Assembly (NCBI GenBank): GCA_035556195.1
Contig: DATMFK010000011.1
Coordinates: forward strand, 24,900 to 88,899
Direction of reading: 5' to 3'
Source: Rhizobiaceae bacterium
GTDB taxonomy: Bacteria; Pseudomonadota; Alphaproteobacteria; Rhizobiales; Rhizobiaceae
DNA: 64,000 nt
The notes beneath the pieces were generated by a model that saw nothing but the letters and a program-made list of their open reading frames with translations, was not told the DNA's origin and searched no databases. Within the stretch, counting starts at the first letter, position 1, and every line of letters starts with the position of its first letter. A program made the translations under genes and the position numbers. This document shows, one piece after another, positions 2,944 through 63,448 of the stretch.

Positions 2944-2983
2944 GGGGGGAGGAGGAGAGATGCTGGGCGCGTATCGCGGGCCC

Positions 2984-3160
2984 CCCCTCATCCGACCTCG
3001 CTTCGCGAGGCCACCTTCTCCCCGTGGGGGAGAAGGAGAAGCTTGGCACCGACGGATCTGGAACGCGGCAAACGTTGGCGATTGGCGCAGACCTTCCCGC
3101 CACGCTCCCTCCTTCTCCCCCACGGGGAGAAGGTGGCCGCGAAGCGGACGGATGAGGGGG
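2984..3160. repeat. Family-A REP doublet (inverted pair)
   Basis: CCCCTCATCCGACCTCGCTTCGCGAGGCCACCTTCTCCCCGTGGGGGAGAAGG (2984-3036) and an inverted copy (3111-3160). Confidence 0.93.
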
Positions 3161-4109: not shown

Positions 4110-5543
4110 TCATGTCAGGGAAGGCGCGATGTCGCGCGCGAATCGGGAAGCCTCGCAATAGGCGCGGTAGCGCCGCGCGGCGCGTTCGGTGTCTTGCGGC
4201 GCGGTTGTCTCGGCCTCGTGCTGCGGCTCGACCTGCGCGAAGCCGAGCTCGCCCGCCACCATGCGATAGATGCCGAGCGCCGGCACGTCGCGGCTTTCCG
4301 GCGGCACGCTCACGCCGCGGCCGAGCGTATCGGCGAGCAGCTGCCGCATGAGCCGGCTTCGTGCACCGCCGCCGATTGCCGTGAGGGGCGAGACCGGCAG
4401 GCCGGCATTTTCCAGATTGTGGCGCACGGCGAAGGCGATGCCTTCCAGCACGGAGCGGCAGAGCGCGGCCGGCCTGTGATTGCGGTCGAGGCCGAGAAAG
4501 GCGCCGCGCACCGCCTGGTCCTCGAAGGGCGAGCGCTCGCCGGCGAGATAGGGCAGGAAGAGCGGGCCGGATTTTTCCGCCTCGGCCGCTTGGAGCAGGG
4601 TCTCGACGGGAAGGGCGGCGATGTCGGCCAGCCAGTCGAGCGCCGAGCCGGCGGTGAGGAAGGGCGAGATCAGGATGGCGTGGTCGGGGCGGATCGGGTC
4701 GGCCAGCGTGTAGATGTCGCGCGGCGGGTCCGCTTCGTCGAGCGTGGTGGTGGCGGCCACCCAGCCCGTCGTGCCGAGATAGACATAGGCCGAGCCCGGC
4801 CGGTCGGCGAAGGCGCCCCAGGTGGCGGCCGCGCCGTCGCCCGCGCCGTTGAAGACGGGGATGCCGGGCTTCAGGCCGAGTGCTGCGGCGGGGGCTTCGA
4901 GCAGGCCGGCGACCACCGCATCGGCCGGGAGGATATTGGGCAGGCGCTCGAGCGAAACGCCGGCTGCGGCTGCGAGGCCGGCATCCCAGGCGCCGGTGCG
5001 GATATCGAAGAGGCCGGTGGTCGTGGCCGTGGTGGGGTCGATCACGCGCTGGCCGGTGAGTCTTTCGATCACCGCGTCCTTGGCGCCGAACAGGAAATGA
5101 GCATTTGCCGCTCCCGCCGGGTAGTAGTGGTCGAGCCGCATGAGCTTGAGGATCGGATGGGCGGCGTCGAGCCGGTTGCCGGTGCGCAGCCCGTAATCGT
5201 CGGGCAGCTCCCTGCCCAGCGCTTCCACGTCGGCCGCGTCGAGCCGCCGGTCGGAATAGAGCACGGCGGGACCGGCCGGGGTGCCGTCGTCGGAGAGGGC
5301 GATGAGGTTCTGCATCGAGCCGGAAAGCGCGATCGCCGCCACGTGCTCGCGCCGTGGCAGGGCGGCGGTGGCGGCGAGCGCCGCCTTCCACCAATCCTCG
5401 ACATTCTGCTCGGCCGAGCGGTCGGTCGCGGTCGCCGTCGGAACCGGACTCGACGCGGCCGCGACGACCGCGCCCGTGCGGGAAAACAGCACCGCCTTGA
5501 GCGCCGAGGAGCCGACGTCGAATATGAGCAGAAGATCGTCCAT
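4110..5543 (-). CDS. FGGY-family carbohydrate kinase (xylulokinase-like)
   Basis: FDVGSSALKAVL, GAGDGAAA, FLPYLAGERSP, AIGGGARS motifs. Confidence 0.9.
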   Translation of the reverse strand: MDDLLLIFDVGSSALKAVLFSRTGAVVAAASSPVPTATATDRSAEQNVEDWWKAALAATAALPRREHVAAIALSGSMQNLIALSDDGTPAGPAVLYSDRRLDAADVEALGRELPDDYGLRTGNRLDAAHPILKLMRLDHYYPAGAANAHFLFGAKDAVIERLTGQRVIDPTTATTTGLFDIRTGAWDAGLAAAAGVSLERLPNILPADAVVAGLLEAPAAALGLKPGIPVFNGAGDGAAATWGAFADRPGSAYVYLGTTGWVAATTTLDEADPPRDIYTLADPIRPDHAILISPFLTAGSALDWLADIAALPVETLLQAAEAEKSGPLFLPYLAGERSPFEDQAVRGAFLGLDRNHRPAALCRSVLEGIAFAVRHNLENAGLPVSPLTAIGGGARSRLMRQLLADTLGRGVSVPPESRDVPALGIYRMVAGELGFAQVEPQHEAETTAPQDTERAARRYRAYCEASRFARDIAPSLT

Positions 5544-5683
5544 TGCTCGCCAAACCTTTGGAATGCCGAATCCCGCAGGCGGGGCGGGATGTCAATCGGG
5601 GCGGGGCTGGGTGGGGAAAAATTGTCGGGCTTGGCGGGGTGGTGGTTCTGGGCGGTTGGGCGGCTGTCGGAGACGGAACGGAA

Positions 5684-5868
5684 TGGATACTCGGATCACC
5701 TCGCTTCGCTCGGGTCCGAGTATGACGAAGCTTCCATGGCGAATGCCAATCGTCGACGTCGCGTTGGGTCAGGCCTGCTGCGCACTCGCAAACGTTGGCG
5801 ATTAGCTGGGCACATAAACGCCGTCGTCATACTCGGACCCGAGCGAAGCGAGGTGATCCGAGTATCCA
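5684..5868. repeat. Family-B CGTC-tagged REP doublet, left of the GIY-YIG gene
   Basis: TGGATACTCGGATCACCTCGCTTCGCTCGGGTCCGAGTATGACG at 5684-5727 and its exact reverse complement at 5825-5868. Confidence 0.95.
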
Positions 5869-5942
5869 TTCCGTTCCCTCGAAACTGCCGCAACGCTGCA
5901 ATCACGGATTGCAAACCGGCATCCGGAATGTACCATCGCCCC

Positions 5943-6230
5943 ATGACCGGCTACGTCTACATGACCGCCAGCAGGAAGCGCGGCACGATCTATATCGGCG
6001 TCACCAACGACCTCGGCCGGCGCATGCCCGAGCACAAGACGGGCGAGGGGTCGCGCTTTACCAGCCGCTACGGCGTCCAGTGCCTCGTCTGGTACGAGGA
6101 GCACTTCGACATCCGCGACGCCATCCAGCGCGAGAAGACGCTGAAGCACTGGCCGCGGCAATGGAAGATCGAGCTGATCGAGAGTCTCAATCCGGAATGG
6201 TTCGAGCTGTTTCGTGGGACGGGGTGGTAG
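5943..6230 (+). CDS. Small stand-alone GIY-YIG nuclease (95 aa, YhbQ/UPF0213-like)
   Basis: MTGYVYMTASRKRGTIYIGVTNDLGRRMPEH...AIQREKTLKHWPRQWKIELIESLNPEW: GYVY and YIG motifs with conserved Arg, His and Glu. It is the C-terminal end of track ORF 4089..6230. Confidence 0.93.
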   Translation: MTGYVYMTASRKRGTIYIGVTNDLGRRMPEHKTGEGSRFTSRYGVQCLVWYEEHFDIRDAIQREKTLKHWPRQWKIELIESLNPEWFELFRGTGW

Positions 6231-6268
6231 TTCTGCACCGTCAGGCGCGCTGCCGCCAGGTAACGGAA

Positions 6269-6417
6269 TGGATACTCGGATCACCTCGCTTCGCTCGGGT
6301 CCGAGTATGACGAAGCTTCTATGGCGAATGCCAAACGTCAACGCCGGTGATTAGCCGAGCACATCAACGCAGTCGTCATACTCGGACCCGAGCGAAGCGA
6401 GGTGATCCGAGTATCCA
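6269..6417. repeat. Family-B CGTC-tagged REP doublet, right of the GIY-YIG gene
   Basis: Same 44-mer at 6269-6312 and its reverse complement at 6374-6417, identical to the left doublet copies. Confidence 0.95.
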
Positions 6418-6504
6418 TTCCGTTCCGTTGCGGCCGAACGCCCGACCTTGCAGAACTCGGCCCGTCTCCCGCTCACGTTCGTGTCGAGATAAAATCAAGA
6501 AAGT

Positions 6505-6638
6505 GAATCGTTCGGAATCATAAGGGCTTGTCAGCGAATCCAGTCTCTGATTCTTTGGCCTTGAGCGTTTCCTGATTTGAGTCGTTTGACGCGTTCGTTG
6601 CGGTCGGTGCCGTTAGGTGCCGGCGGGGACTTCGATTC
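6505..6638. promoter_or_regulatory. Cluster of six GANTC (CcrM methylation) sites upstream of ddl
   Basis: GAATC 6505, 6515, 6536; GATTC 6549, 6634; GAGTC 6579. Confidence 0.6.
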
Positions 6639-6687
6639 AACTTTCGGGAAGCTTGGAGAGGCGCCTGTCCGAGGGGATTGACGGGGT

Positions 6688-7614
6688 ATGAGTAAGAAGC
6701 ACGTGGCTGTTCTGATGGGGGGATTTTCCTCCGAACGGCCTGTGTCGCTTTCGTCGGGGGCGGCTTGCGCCGATGCGCTGGAAGCCGAGGGCTATCGCGT
6801 CACGCGCGTCGATGTCGGTCGCGATGTCGGGTCGGTGCTTGCCGCGCTCGGGCCGGATGTCGCCTTCAACGCCCTGCACGGGCCGTTCGGGGAGGACGGC
6901 ACGATCCAGGGCATCCTTGAATATCTGGAGATTCCCTACACTCATTCCGGCGTGCTCGCCTCGGCGCTCGCCATGAACAAGGAGCAGGCCAAGACGGTCG
7001 CCAAGGCGGCGGGCATTCCTGTCGCGCAATCGAAGGTGATCGATCGCTTCACCATCGTCGACAAGCATCCGATGAAACCGCCCTATGTGGTGAAGCCCGT
7101 CAGCGAGGGATCGAGCTTCGGCGTGGTCATCGTCAAGGAGGATCAGTCGCATCCGCCGCAGATCATCGCTTCGCCCGAATGGCGCTACGGCCCGCAGGTC
7201 ATGGTGGAGCGCTACATCCATGGCCGGGAGCTCACCTGCGCCGTGATGGGCGACGTGGCGCTGGGCGTCACCGAAATCATCCCGATGGGGCATTCCTTCT
7301 ACGATTACGACTCGAAATACGTCCCTGGGGGCTCAAAACACGAATGCCCCGCAAAAGTTTCACCGAATATTTACCAAAAAATACAGACACTGGCGCTCAA
7401 GGCGCACCAAGCGATCGGCTGCCGGGGCGTGTCCCGGTCGGACTTCCGCTACGACGACCGTCACTCCGAGGAGGGCGAGCTCATCTGGCTCGAAGTCAAT
7501 ACCCAGCCGGGGATGACGCCCACGTCGCTGGTGCCTGAGATTGCCGCCCAGGCGGGGCATACGTTCGGTGAATTGTTGAGTTGGATGGTGGAGGACGCTT
7601 CGTGTTTGCGTTGA
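6688..7614 (+). CDS. ddl: D-alanine--D-alanine ligase
   Basis: [38 protein letters not shown] motifs; directly upstream of ftsQ. Confidence 0.97.
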
Positions 7615-11549: not shown

Positions 11550-11565
11550 TCGCAGGGGCGAACGG

Positions 11566-11725
11566 CCCCTCACTGTCCTGCCGGACATCTCTCCCCGCAA
11601 GCGGGGAGAGAATTGCCGGCCGCTTGAATTTCGCCAATCGGCAACGCTGGCGATTGGCGAAGGCGCCGATGACAGCGGTCTTCTCCCCGCTTGCGGGGAG
11701 AAGGTGCCGGCAGGCGGATGAGGGG
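11566..11725. repeat. Family-A REP doublet with a central perfect 11-bp inverted repeat
   Basis: CCCCTCACTGTCCTGCCGGACATCTCTCCCC...GGGGAGAG (11566-11610); TTCGCCAATCG-N10-CGATTGGCGAA (11630-11661); inverted REP at 11680-11725. Confidence 0.92.
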
Positions 11726-11788
11726 CTTGCTCGGCCGTTAATCCTCTTCGGCGCTGTGACGATTCGGTTACATTGCCGCAACAAATTC

Positions 11789-15715: not shown

Positions 15716-15745
15716 TCGCGCGCACCTCAGCAGGTCGCGCTCCTA

Positions 15746-15921
15746 CCCCTCATCCGACCGAGCTTTGCTCGGCCACCTTCTCCCACAAGGGGAGAAGGGA
15801 AGACTGCGGGCACGCTGGTGCCAATCACCAACGTCTACGATTTGCAGTCGCCCCTCTGCCAAGCTCCCCCTTCTCCCCTTGTGGGAGAAGGTGGCCTCGC
15901 GAAGCGAGGTCGGATGAGGGG
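15746..15921. repeat. Family-A REP doublet between recN and ligA
   Basis: CCCCTCATCCGACCGAGCTTTGCTCGGCCACCTTCTCCC...GGAGAAGG (15746-15798) and an inverted copy (15869-15921). Confidence 0.92.
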
Positions 15922-16003
15922 TAGGCTGTGAAGCGCGCCGGACGAGGCCTTGTCAGCAACCTTCCGCCCGCCACTTGCAACTCGCCGCGCCCCACGGCCA
16001 TAG

Positions 16004-18252: not shown

Positions 18253-18469
18253 CGTCATCCCCGGGCCCGCAGGCGAGCGAAGCGAAGCCGAAGGTGACCT
18301 GGGGATCCATGCCGTGACGCTTCTGCCGGTTTCCGCGGGGTAGGATGAATTGCGAAGGGGCACGCGTTTCACGATGATGCCAAACCCGCCCGTCGGGCGT
18401 TCGGCCGCAACGGAACGGAATGGATTCTCGGGTCACCTCGCCCCTTGGGGCTCGGGCCCGAGAATGACG
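18253..18469. repeat. Family-B-related REP doublet with outward CGTC tags (MITE-like)
   Basis: CGTCATCCCCGGG...GAGCGAAGCGA...GGTGACCTGGGGATCCA (18253-18309) and TGGATTCTCGGGTCACCTCGC...CCCGAGAATGACG (18421-18469). Confidence 0.88.
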
Positions 18470-18567: not shown

Positions 18568-19284
18568 ATGGCTGCGCAGTCGACTCTGAGCGAATTCCTG
18601 TCCGGTGCTCGTTCCGGCGTGCCTGTGATGCTGGCCATCGTTCCATTCGGACTGCTGTTCGGCGCGCTGGCCGTCGACAACGGGTTCACCATTGCGGAAG
18701 CCATGCTCATGAGCGCCGCCGTCTATGGCGGCGCCAGCCAGATGGTGGGCATCGAGCTCTTCGGCCAGGAAGTGGCACCGTGGCTGATCGTGCTTTCCAT
18801 CTTCGCGGTCAATTTCCGCCACGTTCTCTATTCCGCCGCCTTCGGCCCGGTGATCCGAAACTGGCCTACGCTGCAGAAGGCCATCGCCTTCTTCTTCCTG
18901 AGCGACCCGCAATTCGCCGAGGCCGAGCGACGGCGGGACGGTGGCGGCAGGATCAGCTTCGCCTGGTACCTCGGCATGGCCGCGTTCTGGTGGGTCGCCT
19001 GGGTGGCAGAGACGGGGATCGGCGCCTATTTCGGCGGCCTCATCGCCGACAGCCATGCACTCGGCATCGATTTCCTGCTGCCGATCTATTTCCTCGGCCT
19101 CGTGATGAGCTTCCGCAAGCGCCCCTTGTGGCTGCCGGTGATCCTCGTGAGCGCGGTAGCCTCGATCATCGCCTACAAGATCGTCGGCTCGCCATGGCAT
19201 GTGTCGATCGGCGCCGTGGCGGGCGTCCTCCTGGCTGCGGCCATGCCGCCGCGCATCCAACAATCCGTGGAGAGAAATGCATGA
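18568..19284 (+). CDS. AzlC-family branched-chain amino acid exporter, large subunit
   Basis: YGGASQ, NFRHVLYS, FFLSDPQFA motifs; multiple transmembrane segments. Confidence 0.9.
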   Translation: MAAQSTLSEFLSGARSGVPVMLAIVPFGLLFGALAVDNGFTIAEAMLMSAAVYGGASQMVGIELFGQEVAPWLIVLSIFAVNFRHVLYSAAFGPVIRNWPTLQKAIAFFFLSDPQFAEAERRRDGGGRISFAWYLGMAAFWWVAWVAETGIGAYFGGLIADSHALGIDFLLPIYFLGLVMSFRKRPLWLPVILVSAVASIIAYKIVGSPWHVSIGAVAGVLLAAAMPPRIQQSVERNA

Positions 19285-19624: not shown

Positions 19625-20368
19625 ATGACCGCTGAAGCAATCTTCCCGAGATCGGGCACGAGCCAGTTCCTGCGCGGGGCGCGGCTCGGCATGCCCGTGG
19701 TGATAGCCTCCGCGCCCTTCGCTATTCTCTTCGGCGCGCTCGCCGTCGACAACGGCATGTCCGTCATGGAGACGACGCTGATGAGCGCGACCATCTTTGC
19801 CGGCGCGAGCCAGATGGTTGGCCTCGAGCTCTTCGGCCACGATATCCCGCCATGGCTTGTCGTGTTCTCGATCTTCGCCGTCAATTTCCGGCACGTGCTC
19901 TATTCGGCCGCGGTCGGTCGACGCGTCGGGCATTGGACCTTCTTGCAAAAGACGGTCGGCTTCTTTTTCCTCGTCGATCCGCAATACGCCGAAACGGAGC
20001 GCAAGGCGGAGAGAGGCGAGAGCATCGGTTTCGGCTGGTATATGGGCATGGCGCTGACGATGTATCTGTTCTGGGTCGCCACATCTGCGCTGGGGGCGAT
20101 CTTCGGCAAGCTCTTGCCCGACACCCACGCGCTGGGCATCGATTTCCTCCTGCCGATCTATTTCCTCGGGCTCGTCATGGGTTTCCGCAAGCGGCCGCTC
20201 TGGCTGCCGATTGTCGTGGCGAGCGCCGTGGTCTCCGTCGTCGCCTTCAAATTCGTTGGCTCGCCCTGGCATGTGTCGATCGGTGCCGCCGCCGGCATTG
20301 TCCTCGCCGCGGCCATGCCGCCCCGCGGTAAAGTGGATCTTGGCGAGGGGTTGGAGGCGGAGGTTTGA
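19625..20368 (+). CDS. Second AzlC-family protein (paralog)
   Basis: FAGASQ, NFRHVLYS; shares HALGIDFLLPIYFLGLVMxFRKRPLWLP with the first copy. Confidence 0.9.
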   Translation: MTAEAIFPRSGTSQFLRGARLGMPVVIASAPFAILFGALAVDNGMSVMETTLMSATIFAGASQMVGLELFGHDIPPWLVVFSIFAVNFRHVLYSAAVGRRVGHWTFLQKTVGFFFLVDPQYAETERKAERGESIGFGWYMGMALTMYLFWVATSALGAIFGKLLPDTHALGIDFLLPIYFLGLVMGFRKRPLWLPIVVASAVVSVVAFKFVGSPWHVSIGAAAGIVLAAAMPPRGKVDLGEGLEAEV

Positions 20369-55697: not shown

Positions 55698-56461
55698 TGG
55701 CGGTCGAGAATGGCGCGGAAGAACTGCCGGGTGCGCTCGGAAGTGGGGTTGCGGATGACAGCGTCCGGCGTGCCCTGCTCTATGATCGCGCCGTTGGCCA
55801 TGACGATGACGCGGTCGGCCACCTCCGCGGCGAACGCGATCTCGTGGGTGACGACGATCATCGTCATCCCGTCGCGAGCCAGCTCGCGCATGACGGCCAA
55901 CACTTCCAGACCGAGTTCCGGATCCAGCGCGGATGTCGGCTCGTCGAAAAGCATGACCTGCGGATCGAGGGCAAGGGCCCGGGCGATCGCGATGCGCTGC
56001 TGCTGCCCGCCGGAGAGACGGGATGGATAGGAATGCGCCTTGTCGGCGAGCTTGACACGCTCGAGAAGCTGGGCCGTGCGAGCATCCGCCTCGGCCTTGG
56101 ATCGCCCGAGAACACGCATCTGGGGCAGCGAAATGTTGCGTTCCACGGTCATGTGGGGAAACAGGTTGAAGGACTGGAACACCATGCCGGTGGCGCGACG
56201 CAGCTTCAGGAGCTCCGCCGCTGTCAGTGTTTTCGAGACATCGAACCTGAAATCGCCGACGGACAATTCTCCGGAGTGGGGCGTCTCGAGCATGTTGATC
56301 GTGCGCAACAACGTGCTCTTGCCCGCGCCGCTCGGCCCGACGATCGCGATCACCTCGCCGCGCTTGATCTCAAGGTCGACGTCCTTAACCGCGTGGAAGC
56401 CGCTGTACCTGACATTGATGTCCTTGAGACGAACAATCTGATCTGGATCAGTCAAACGCAT
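55694..56461 (-). CDS. Amino acid ABC ATP-binding protein
   Basis: GPSGAGKST, LSGGQQQR, FDEPTSALDPE, VTHE. Confidence 0.94.
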   Translation of the reverse strand: MRLTDPDQIVRLKDINVRYSGFHAVKDVDLEIKRGEVIAIVGPSGAGKSTLLRTINMLETPHSGELSVGDFRFDVSKTLTAAELLKLRRATGMVFQSFNLFPHMTVERNISLPQMRVLGRSKAEADARTAQLLERVKLADKAHSYPSRLSGGQQQRIAIARALALDPQVMLFDEPTSALDPELGLEVLAVMRELARDGMTMIVVTHEIAFAAEVADRVIVMANGAIIEQGTPDAVIRNPTSERTRQFFRAILDRQ

Positions 56462-63278: not shown

Positions 63279-63435
63279 CCCCTCACCGTACGGACATCTA
63301 TCCCCGCGAGGGGGGAGAGAGAGCATGGCCGAATGGCTTTCGCCAATCCGAGAACGTTGGTGATCGGGGAAAGTGGAGATGGCATCGGTCTTCTCCCCGC
63401 CCGCGGGGAGAAGGTGCCGGCAGGCTGATGAGGGG
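63279..63435. repeat. Family-A REP doublet
   Basis: CCCCTCACCGTACGGACATCTATCCCC...GGGGAGAG (63279-63320); core at 63338-63372; inverted REP at 63390-63435. Confidence 0.9.
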
Positions 63436-63448
63436 CTTGCTGGGCCGG

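Follow-up and report, generated by a model that had tools for sequence, protein, structure and literature searches.

Which enzyme, if any, serves the CGTC-tagged repetitive extragenic palindromes (REPs) of bacteria? The question is raised by a locus in a 64,000-nucleotide (nt) stretch of DNA from a Rhizobiaceae bacterium (assembly GCA_035556195.1, contig DATMFK010000011.1, positions 24,900 to 88,899; hereafter the window), where a gene for a GIY-YIG nuclease of 95 amino acids (aa) lies among four identical palindromes. REPs are among the most abundant non-coding repeats of bacteria, and the discovery of the REP-associated tyrosine transposases (RAYTs) made the GTAG-tagged half of them a mechanistic field. 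The CGTC REPs, surveyed by Di Nocera, De Gregorio, and Rocco (BMC Genomics 2013; PMC3733652), "apparently lack a dedicated transposase", unlike the GTAG REPs with their RAYTs. In the same survey, 'a broad spectrum of transposases' was put forward as what CGTC REPs may use; the associations seen with transposase genes were all fortuitous, and it was left open whether these REPs are still active (PMC3733652).

Segment 5824-6313 of the window is a compact autonomous REP cassette, to which one further REP is added on each side at this locus. That the cassette is a discrete mobile unit appears highly probable, and we lean towards the view that its nuclease works on CGTC REPs and is what spreads or maintains them. 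The best reading is a system akin to REPtrons in which a GIY-YIG nuclease takes the place of the RAYT.

The gene and its palindromes

A preliminary description of this DNA had placed four identical 44-nt hairpins around an intact 95-aa GIY-YIG gene. Both were found, the earlier hairpin coordinates being off by 1 nt only. The 44-mer GGATACTCGGATCACCTCGCTTCGCTCGGGTCCGAGTATGACGA occurs in four exact copies with 0 mismatches, at 5685-5728 (+), 5824-5867 (-), 6270-6313 (+), and 6373-6416 (-); it was absent elsewhere in the window and had 0 occurrences in 100 shuffles. The gene is the open reading frame (ORF) 5943-6230 (+), whose product matches Pfam family PF01541. The 44-nt copies are the cores of inverted arms of 56-57 nt (5672-5728 with 5824-5880, 98%; 5824-5879 with 6258-6313, 98%). 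The two hairpin doublets repeat one another in direct orientation (5635-5761 vs 6220-6346, 84% over 127 nt; 5791-5877 vs 6340-6426, 92% over 87 nt), which bears out the relatedness of the two spacers noted before, and the diverged relatives said to lie 12 kb off are present at 18254-18308 (+) and 18422-18468 (-). A relaxed REP scan of the window gave no further genuine copy and one likely spurious match (55797-55869), so that four of the six genuine REP copies stand at a single GIY-YIG gene. Both doublets at the gene are head-to-head dimers.

Each hairpin reads CGTC-AT-ACTCGGA-(19-nt loop)-TCCGAGT-AT-CCA. The published signature of CGTC REPs comprises an unpaired CGTC tag, a stem opening with A-T/T-A pairs, a CCA tail, and head-to-head dimers, mostly in Alphaproteobacteria (PMC3733652). 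The window REP displays the tag and the tail (CGTC-AT...AT-CCA) as well as the stem of 8-9 bp with A-T and T-A first (AT+ACTCGGA pairs with TCCGAGT+AT), but not the loop of 4-5 nt: its loop measures 19 nt, and those of Mesorhizobium REPs measure ~33 nt. Loops of 4-5 nt occur in the distant loci treated below and in Sinorhizobium meliloti, Azospirillum lipoferum, Aeromonas, and Rhizobium, and loop-length variants in Bradyrhizobium were noted in the 2013 survey (PMC3733652). Judged by tag, stem, and tail, the window hairpins are members of the CGTC-tagged REP superfamily, in a long-loop variant. The tag of the superfamily may also read TGTC: among 84 short REPs, the base before GTCAT was T in 54 and C in 28, and 79 had the CCA tail.

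The importance of the stem follows from compensatory substitutions, not from folding energy. GTCAT-N16-ATCC sites of the distant set had 6/6 Watson-Crick pairs in 80 of 94 cases, where shuffling expects 1.85 sites in total, and four pair types were seen at two stem positions. Among 101 long REPs picked by the loop motif alone, 65 had 7/7 pairs and 30 had 6/7, with compensatory changes at four positions. On the evidence of these pairings, REP stems covary and the hairpin is under selection. The REP doublet folds with -100.7 kcal/mol (z=-19). The loops of long REPs (window 5840-5856 and other long-loop hairpins) contain GCGAAGC, and the centres of short REPs have the form C-GNAR-G (GCGAAAGC, GCGAAGGC); both resemble DNA mini-hairpins known for exceptional stability, a likeness that would suit a role as single-stranded DNA.

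The 95-aa protein matches the Pfam GIY-YIG model PF01541 over residues 3-75 (E=1.3e-14, 54.7 bits, cut-off 22.6); its only other Pfam match was a weak one to T5orf172. Across 21 homologs, Y6 (in YVY), Y17-I18-G19, R26/R27, H31, and E64 are invariant or nearly so, and N83 is invariant; we take these residues to be equivalent to the catalytic residues of I-TevI. The closest sequences in PDB are the UPF0213 proteins BH0048 (1ZG2, E=6.9e-6) and EF2693 (1YWL, E=1.1e-3). For the AlphaFold2 model (confidence score pLDDT 80), the top Foldseek matches were all GIY-YIG proteins, namely 1ZG2, several Slx1 chains, HIGLE, and I-TevI (best E 1.4e-3; template modelling score ~0.5). Slx1 is a nuclease of branched DNA. 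Stand-alone bacterial GIY-YIG proteins have been grouped in the Slx1 cluster (Dunin-Horkawicz et al., 2006; PMC1564403). By these matches, the 95-aa protein is a minimal stand-alone GIY-YIG domain of the Slx1-like/UPF0213 (COG2827) type. With Slx1/UPF0213 (YhbQ-type) proteins it shares the single minimal domain of ~95 aa and the best PDB sequence matches (1ZG2, 1YWL), Slx1 being its best functional fold match, but it has no RING/Slx4 partner. To our knowledge, neither C-terminal WxRxWKxxLIExxNPxW helices, which are conserved in the cassette proteins, nor an association with REPs has been described for the Slx1/UPF0213 family.

The protein family comprises 11,692 clusters at 50% identity (E<=1e-3). 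The 95-aa protein had no defence-system match in PADLOC, no NCBIfam model above the curated cut-off, and a weak PHROG match to homing endonucleases. Some family members may have other roles, such as the homolog of Planktothrix agardhii p1 (689-973 of its locus), which lacks REPs and lies between an MmeI-type restriction-modification gene and the DISARM gene drmA.

REPs at close and distant homologs

Close homologs were collected by a scan of one genome per species, which gave at least 590 relatives; the best 80 loci were kept with 10-kb flanks (Phyllobacteriaceae). The REP detector required, in this order, GTCAT, a stem arm able to form 6 or more pairs, a loop, the matching stem arm, and ATCC. 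In 81 loci from 41 contexts, REP density was 4.05/kb within 250 bp of the gene vs 0.02-0.07/kb beyond 1 kb, and three decoy flank motifs gave 0 matches. The distant set, obtained by a metagenome scan with an alignment of ~50%-identical proteins, comprised 80 loci with a guanine-plus-cytosine content of 32-67%. Here, canonical 25-nt CGTC REPs, for example GTCATTCCCGCGAAAGCGGGAATCC, reached 5.05/kb within 100 bp vs 0.08-0.09/kb beyond 500 bp. REPs are thus enriched 60-100-fold near the gene across the close and distant sets. Intergenic DNA makes up about one tenth of a genome, and for the close homologs the enrichment over intergenic DNA alone would be nearer ten- to forty-fold, an estimate and not a computed value.

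The preliminary description had suggested checking whether homologs are flanked by REPs. For the close homologs this was the case: 72 of 75 had a REP within 500 bp and 57 of 75 had REPs on both sides, in fixed spacing and orientation. In 46 loci, exactly one REP(+) lies 73-78 nt before the ATG and one REP(-) 38-48 nt past the stop codon; the inner REP pair of the window, at 75 nt and 39 nt, falls inside these ranges. Copies from different contexts, including paralogs from the same genome, align only from (C)TTCGTCAT to ATGACGAA(G), and nothing is shared outside. The unit so delimited measures 490-527 bp in most loci and ~490 bp in the window (5824-6313).

The unit of the window begins with the left terminal REP (5824-5880, +; TCGTCAT-ACTCGGA-loop(19)-TCCGAGT-ATCCATTCCGT), whose CGTC tag faces outward and where the similarity between copies starts. 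The leader (5881-5942, +) extends from the left REP arm to the ATG, the REP core (ATCC) ending 75 nt before it. The gene (5943-6230, +), with the conserved residues Y6, Y17, R27, H31, E64, and N83, is followed by the trailer from the stop codon to the right REP arm (6231-6257, +) and by the right terminal REP (6258-6313, -), an inverted copy of 5824-5879 with its tag (...ATGACGA) again outward, whose core starts 39 nt past the stop and with which the similarity between copies stops. The locus had been described as a gene boxed by four REPs. All four are present, but the conserved core has one REP per side, tags outward, and the outer two are extras whose number varies among close relatives. 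The outer left REP (5672-5728, -; core 5685-5728, tag ...ATGACGA at its right end) forms, together with 5635-5671, a copy of the 'right-end' segment that lies after the gene. The 95-nt spacer of the left head-to-head dimer (5729-5823) has an internal palindrome, GCCAATCG...CGATTAGC, and carries the AACGTTGGCGATTAGC module; the 59-nt spacer of the right head-to-head dimer (6314-6372) is related to it (92%). The outer right REP with an inverted trailer copy (6373-6457, +) is an 85-nt arm complementary to 6229-6313 (89%).

The 81 loci fall into 41 unrelated genomic contexts, of which 13 are common to at least two species and one to 11 species. A conserved housekeeping position for the gene was rejected, since contexts differ between genera (41 clusters). 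In the loci examined, the cassettes had no other recurrent neighbour gene. Of the sampled genomes, 17 are represented by 2-3 copies in the set of 80 loci kept. Paralogs from one genome share 79-95% of their DNA sequence and are never identical, and copies in the same context average 87% across genomes. A recent burst of the cassette was rejected because the paralogs are only 79-95% identical. The identity of the four window hairpins, taken earlier as a sign of recent activity, does not carry that conclusion: the adjoining spacers are only 84-92% alike, and selection or gene conversion acting on the hairpins explains the identity better. Flanks outside the unit display only a weak symmetric preference, CCCC-N3-CCT / AGG-N3-GGGG. 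At 10-30 nt outside the two ends, the within-copy match was 5.9 of 12 vs 5.1 of 12 between copies, a difference not used as evidence.

Distant loci share the layout. REP orientation was +/- in 25 of 29 loci, and the left stem equalled the right stem in 14 of 29, vs 8.7% for pairs taken across loci. In a motif-free test, the two flanks shared an exact inverted stretch of 12 nt or more in 27 of 60 loci vs 5% of mismatched pairs; the test also revealed tag-and-tail variants missed by the strict detector. The shuffles, the densities in close and distant loci, and the motif-free inverted-match test exclude an association of gene and REPs by chance.

Whether each homolog has its own cognate REP, a further check named in the preliminary description, was judged by the REP type of each lineage and by left/right matching, and not by formal co-phylogeny. 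At homologs of ~45-60% identity, the layout recurs with a REP type particular to the lineage, and left and right REPs match within a locus. In S. meliloti, the gene lies between gltA and lpxB with CGTC REPs on both sides (stem CCTCGGG/CCCGAGG), the downstream copies being degenerate. The gene of Novosphingobium aromaticivorans, on plasmid pNL2, has a variant CGTC-GCCCCGTG REP on each side. Canonical layouts were also found in Aeromonas caviae, for which the position of the gene is not annotated, and in Rhizobium sp. CIAT894, where it lies beside an IS4 transposase gene. In Neisseria gonorrhoeae, the gene is placed inside an array of REPs of the ATTCCC-N8-GGGAAT type, a non-canonical layout. 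Sequence comparison thus shows the cassette to be conserved from Rhizobiales to Beta- and Gammaproteobacteria with REP types of each lineage's own, the N. gonorrhoeae copy being part of an array. S. meliloti, A. lipoferum, N. aromaticivorans, and Neisseria all belong to the 2013 survey, which reports no associated enzyme (PMC3733652), and all carry REP-associated GIY-YIG genes here.

Database ORFs of the distant representatives start too far upstream and translate the REPs into peptides such as FVIPAKAGIH, VMAGLVPAIH, SFLRKQESS, GRDKPGHD, and WIPACAGMT. These over-extended ORFs are a systematic annotation artefact that can be used as a search handle (proteins P0137, P0143, P0158, P0167, P0168, P0178, P0180, P0216, P0240, and P0267).

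Purifying selection on the gene is strong (median dN/dS, the ratio of nonsynonymous to synonymous substitution rates, 0.057 at dS about 1; 77 of 81 copies intact). This would suit an ordinary host DNA-repair nuclease of the UvrC/Cho-like or Slx1-like kind, beside which the REPs would be regulatory or insulating transcript hairpins or chance neighbours in spacers rich in repeats. Copies are indeed inherited at the same positions across species, and REPs are known downstream of genes. For Caulobacter, a repair function has been considered for small COG2827 genes, of which one has an SOS box (PMC1839093). A repair nuclease would, however, hardly account for the 60-100-fold enrichment, the fixed spacing and inverted orientation on both sides, the 41 contexts with several copies per genome, the co-variation, or the coincidence of similarity boundaries with REP ends. 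We consider this explanation improbable, also in view of the insertion sites described below.

Insertion sites and gene-less REPs

Empty sites had been named in the preliminary description as a further check, and a filled/empty pair is present in Azospirillum. In A. lipoferum 4B, the gene lies between sufB and sufC with a pair of species-specific REPs on each side. In A. ramasamyi, A. oryzae, and Azospirillum sp. B510, the flanks are 95-96% identical to those of 4B and the sufB-sufC spacer of ~90-130 bp contains neither REPs nor the gene. Among 127 matching plasmid/chromid records, only that of 4B itself covers at least 80% of the query. A gain in the 4B lineage is parsimonious because the close relatives and the other records have the empty spacer; REPs and gene entered a REP-free site together. 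Because ~45 nt of the empty spacer are replaced, the exact ends and any target duplication are unreadable at the 4B junctions.

Shinella sp. PSBB067 carries a different cassette in the same sufB-sufC spacer, with a protein of 48% identity and a different REP type (CCTCGGGCTTGTCCCGAGG). It begins 5 nt past the sufB stop codon; S. meliloti and other Sinorhizobium records have a short spacer here. The Shinella cassette is a second, independent insertion. The two unlike cassettes occupy positions 1355-1971 of the A. lipoferum 4B locus and 853-1340 of the Shinella locus. In Sphingomonas and Paracoccus, the sufB-sufC spacers hold other small genes (DUF559, heavy-metal-binding), and the spacer looks like an insertion hotspot.

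These sites speak further against a host repair nuclease, as the gene and its REPs are jointly present or absent in Azospirillum and independent insertions have occurred inside the suf operon. Alternatively, gene and REPs might be passengers of an unrelated transposase or recombinase with specificity for CGTC REPs. The chemistry of GIY-YIG enzymes does not by itself allow DNA joining, 'a broad spectrum of transposases' has been suggested for CGTC REPs (PMC3733652), and elements of the IS110 family are known to target REPs (10.1101/2025.01.17.633520). A passenger status would leave unexplained why Alpha-, Beta-, and Gammaproteobacteria all have this one small gene as the invariable cargo. No other gene recurs beside the cassettes in the loci examined, and the associations of CGTC REPs with transposase genes were only fortuitous (PMC3733652). 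We regard it as very improbable.

Away from the genes, REPs are mostly paired. Gene-less tail-to-tail pairs, ~230 bp long, correspond at one end to the left REP and the initial ~45 nt of the leader, and at the other to the trailer and the right REP; in Mesorhizobium, leader and trailer are inverted repeats of each other. The diverged REPs of the window form a gene-less tail-to-tail pair, with the left member at 18254-18308 (+) and the right member at 18422-18468 (-), the inner flank of the latter being 96% complementary to 6397-6446. Gene-less pairs are miniature derivatives of the cassette and are to it what MITEs (small transposable elements with inverted repeats), or REP doublets forming hairpins (REPINs), are to their autonomous partner, and the window pair at 18254-18468 belongs to this kind.

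The outer REPs form head-to-head dimers with the terminal REPs, and their count differs among close relatives at the same locus. One outer REP per side is present in the window and two, in three loop variants, at locus L174, whose Ddl is 92% identical to that of the window (L174 1640-2710 vs window 5672-6457). Between these two loci, the REP arrays beside the gene expand symmetrically. Mesorhizobium sp. 1B3 has one intact upstream outer REP; none was detected downstream, where a near-copy can nevertheless be seen in the alignment.

At the window's own locus, no empty allele was found: every contig with an identical Ddl or GIY-YIG protein carries the cassette. Gene order differs in Mesorhizobium sp. 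BAC0120, which hence offers no clean empty site for this locus. In Logan contigs from two soil metagenome runs (X1 and X6), position 5737 is joined to 6364, skipping 626 nt, at a depth like that of the organism; this joint represents either an allele that lacks the gene or, at some other place, a head-to-head REP dimer without a gene. In metagenome run X1, the summed contig depth was 150-320 at the hairpins vs ~7.5 in the flanks. Metatranscriptome contigs covered the REPs and not the gene.

These observations can also be read as those of a selfish, homing-type cassette that owns two REPs as its terminal repeats and has no role in the spread of gene-less REPs. The latter would then be dead miniature derivatives, or an independent population which the cassette resembles or targets. 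The discrete unit with REP ends, its insertion as a whole into REP-free sufB-sufC spacers, the likeness of gene-less doublets to internal-deletion derivatives, and the weak PHROG match to homing endonucleases are all consistent with such an element. Yet the genes of homing endonucleases usually decay once fixed, whereas the present gene has a dN/dS of 0.06 and 77 of 81 copies intact. The extra REPs and arrays at the gene differ among close relatives, and the combination of an invariant tag and tail with variable stems in very distant hosts argues for general REP recognition. An element that merely owns its two ends is a less probable alternative to a nuclease that acts on CGTC REPs at large.

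Proposed role of the nuclease and other features of the window

The preliminary description had proposed a candidate RAYT-like repeat-spreading system. As regards the flanking REPs, the REP types of individual homologs, and the existence of an empty site, this proposal is supported; its argument from recent activity fails. The closest known systems are REPtrons, in which a RAYT (HUH/Y1, IS200/IS605-related) is combined with GTAG REPs or REPINs. In both, a small nuclease gene is flanked by an inverted palindromic repeat that is dispersed in the genome, a conserved tetranucleotide tag stays unpaired below the repeat's stem, which varies and covaries, doublets fold to long hairpins, and the gene is long-lived and partly inherited vertically. 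The cassette differs in its hydrolytic GIY-YIG enzyme, which uses neither a catalytic tyrosine nor a covalent intermediate, in its tag (CGTC vs GTAG), in a gene that is often multi-copy where RAYTs are typically single-copy, and in the insertion of whole cassettes at new sites. The inverted cognate REPs at the gene do have further copies elsewhere, but the cassette is not a REPtron because its enzyme is not HUH/Y1 and its gene is not single-copy and vertical.

Insertion sequences (IS) and MITEs resemble the cassette in having terminal inverted repeats around a single ORF, many contexts, filled and empty sites, and gene-less miniatures that keep both ends. At ~0.5 kb, the cassette is shorter than the 0.8-2 kb quoted for IS (PMC3733652). 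Its ORF is outside the known transposase classes (DDE, HUH, serine, tyrosine), and no target-site duplication was found. Hence the features of IS and MITEs are present as far as terminal inverted repeats, varied contexts, and an empty site are concerned, and absent as regards the transposase class and target-site duplications. With free-standing homing endonucleases of the I-TevI type, the proposed system would share the repair of a nuclease break by copying of the element. The cassette protein lacks a separate DNA-binding domain (NUMOD or similar), an intron, or a guide RNA, and its presumed target is a dispersed hairpin, not a unique allele. The role of a 'maintainer', considered for the nuclease in the preliminary description, mirrors that of TnpB, for which one report describes stimulation of recombination by double-strand breaks and a 'homing' maintenance of IS605 elements (10.1101/2023.11.20.567912).

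Across very distant hosts, the unpaired CGTC tag, the first pairs A-T/T-A, and the CCA tail are invariant, and the remaining stem positions drift in a compensated manner. Both TnpA and RAYT recognise a hairpin of their own together with the GTAG tag. Invariance of tag and tail with drift of the stem is therefore the pattern expected of a protein that reads a hairpin and its single-stranded foot. By analogy, we infer that the GIY-YIG nuclease would be the cognate enzyme of CGTC REPs and play the part that RAYTs have for GTAG REPs. The CGTC tag and the CCA tail would allow it to recognise a REP stem-loop that is extruded as a cruciform or in single-stranded DNA, and it would nick at the foot of the hairpin, at the tag; nicking of this kind is proposed because the nearest characterised relatives cut branched DNA. 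GIY-YIG enzymes hydrolyse DNA without a covalent intermediate, and movement or homogenisation would therefore depend on host replication and recombination repair. The segments moved would be the 0.5-kb gene-bearing unit and the gene-less doublets of ~0.2 kb, with breaks repaired by the host. Such a mode would be homing or maintenance by break-induced copying rather than classical cut-and-paste transposition, and both the homogenisation of the hairpins and the variation of the REP arrays next to the gene could be explained by it.

More tentatively, a clade of ~95-aa GIY-YIG nucleases could be the dedicated enzyme of the whole CGTC REP superfamily, comprising the alphaproteobacterial REPs, the ATTCCC-N8-GGGAAT type of Neisseria, and the FVIPAKAGIQ type of many bacteria. 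This would amount to a second, non-HUH origin of the REP-nuclease partnership, with a ~0.5-kb cassette that spreads by structure-specific nicking and host repair.

Several findings weigh against an enzyme that spreads or maintains CGTC REPs. GIY-YIG nucleases cannot perform strand transfer, which leaves the chemistry of mobility unexplained. The fold matches to Slx1 are weak, none having E<=0.001, and a single long-loop hairpin of the window is not exceptional in its folding energy (-8.1 kcal/mol, z=-0.9). Strong purifying selection fits a host function equally. Canonical REPs are absent at the Planktothrix and Spirosoma homologs and, by the strict detector, in 22 of 59 distant loci. Gene-less REPs are more numerous than the genes, and a different enzyme could move them. 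The cassette ends showed no target-site duplication. Movement, though real, is rare and slow and is mixed with vertical inheritance, since paralogs are 79-95% identical and 13 contexts are shared across species.

A full-text literature search revealed no paper linking GIY-YIG proteins with REPs, although it covered few subscription journals and a prior description is possible; none of the papers found to cite the 2013 survey of CGTC REPs names an enzyme. The proposed REP-nuclease partnership is built on a different nuclease fold and bears on a question left open in print. The presence of the cassette in model organisms (S. meliloti, A. lipoferum, and Neisseria) makes the question of the CGTC REP enzyme directly testable. 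If correct, the proposed role would add a new enzyme class to prokaryotic mobile DNA and put a very small hairpin-specific nuclease on offer. It would also explain the ORFs wrongly extended into REPs, as well as thousands of annotations that read "excinuclease ABC subunit C" or "GIY-YIG nuclease family protein".

The source of the window is an uncultured soil bacterium similar to Mesorhizobium. In the window, the cassette is flanked by a gene for an FGGY sugar kinase (4110-5543, -) and by ddl-ftsQ-ftsA (from 6688, +). A sugar-binding protein gene, the FGGY kinase gene, and the cassette precede ddl-ftsQ-ftsA in this lineage (4110-7614), and Mesorhizobium sp. BAC0120 has the usual murC-murB-(acetyltransferase)-ddl order instead. 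No sigma-70 promoter or intrinsic terminator was predicted between 5500 and 6750, and no Rfam family was matched in the window.

A second, unrelated family of palindromic repeats occurs at 922-1457, 2961-3154, 11565-11737, 15742-15939, and 63353-63447. It has the core CTTCTCCCC-N4-GGGGAGAAG and the arm CCCCTCATCCGCCTGCCGGCAC, and forms about four tandem units of 117-118 bp at 922-1390. The short module AACGYTGGCGATTRGC adjoins both repeat families (5791-5806, 6340-6355, 11643-11658, and 63353-63368), and GATTAGCC... is found on both sides of many Mesorhizobium cassettes. Shared short modules of this kind suggest a mosaic construction, similar to that of bacterial interspersed mosaic elements (BIMEs) or Neisseria intergenic mosaic elements (NIMEs). 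Finally, segments 18588-19254 and 19660-20326, which lie 1072 nt apart, are direct repeats of 75-76% identity and probably represent tandem paralogous genes.

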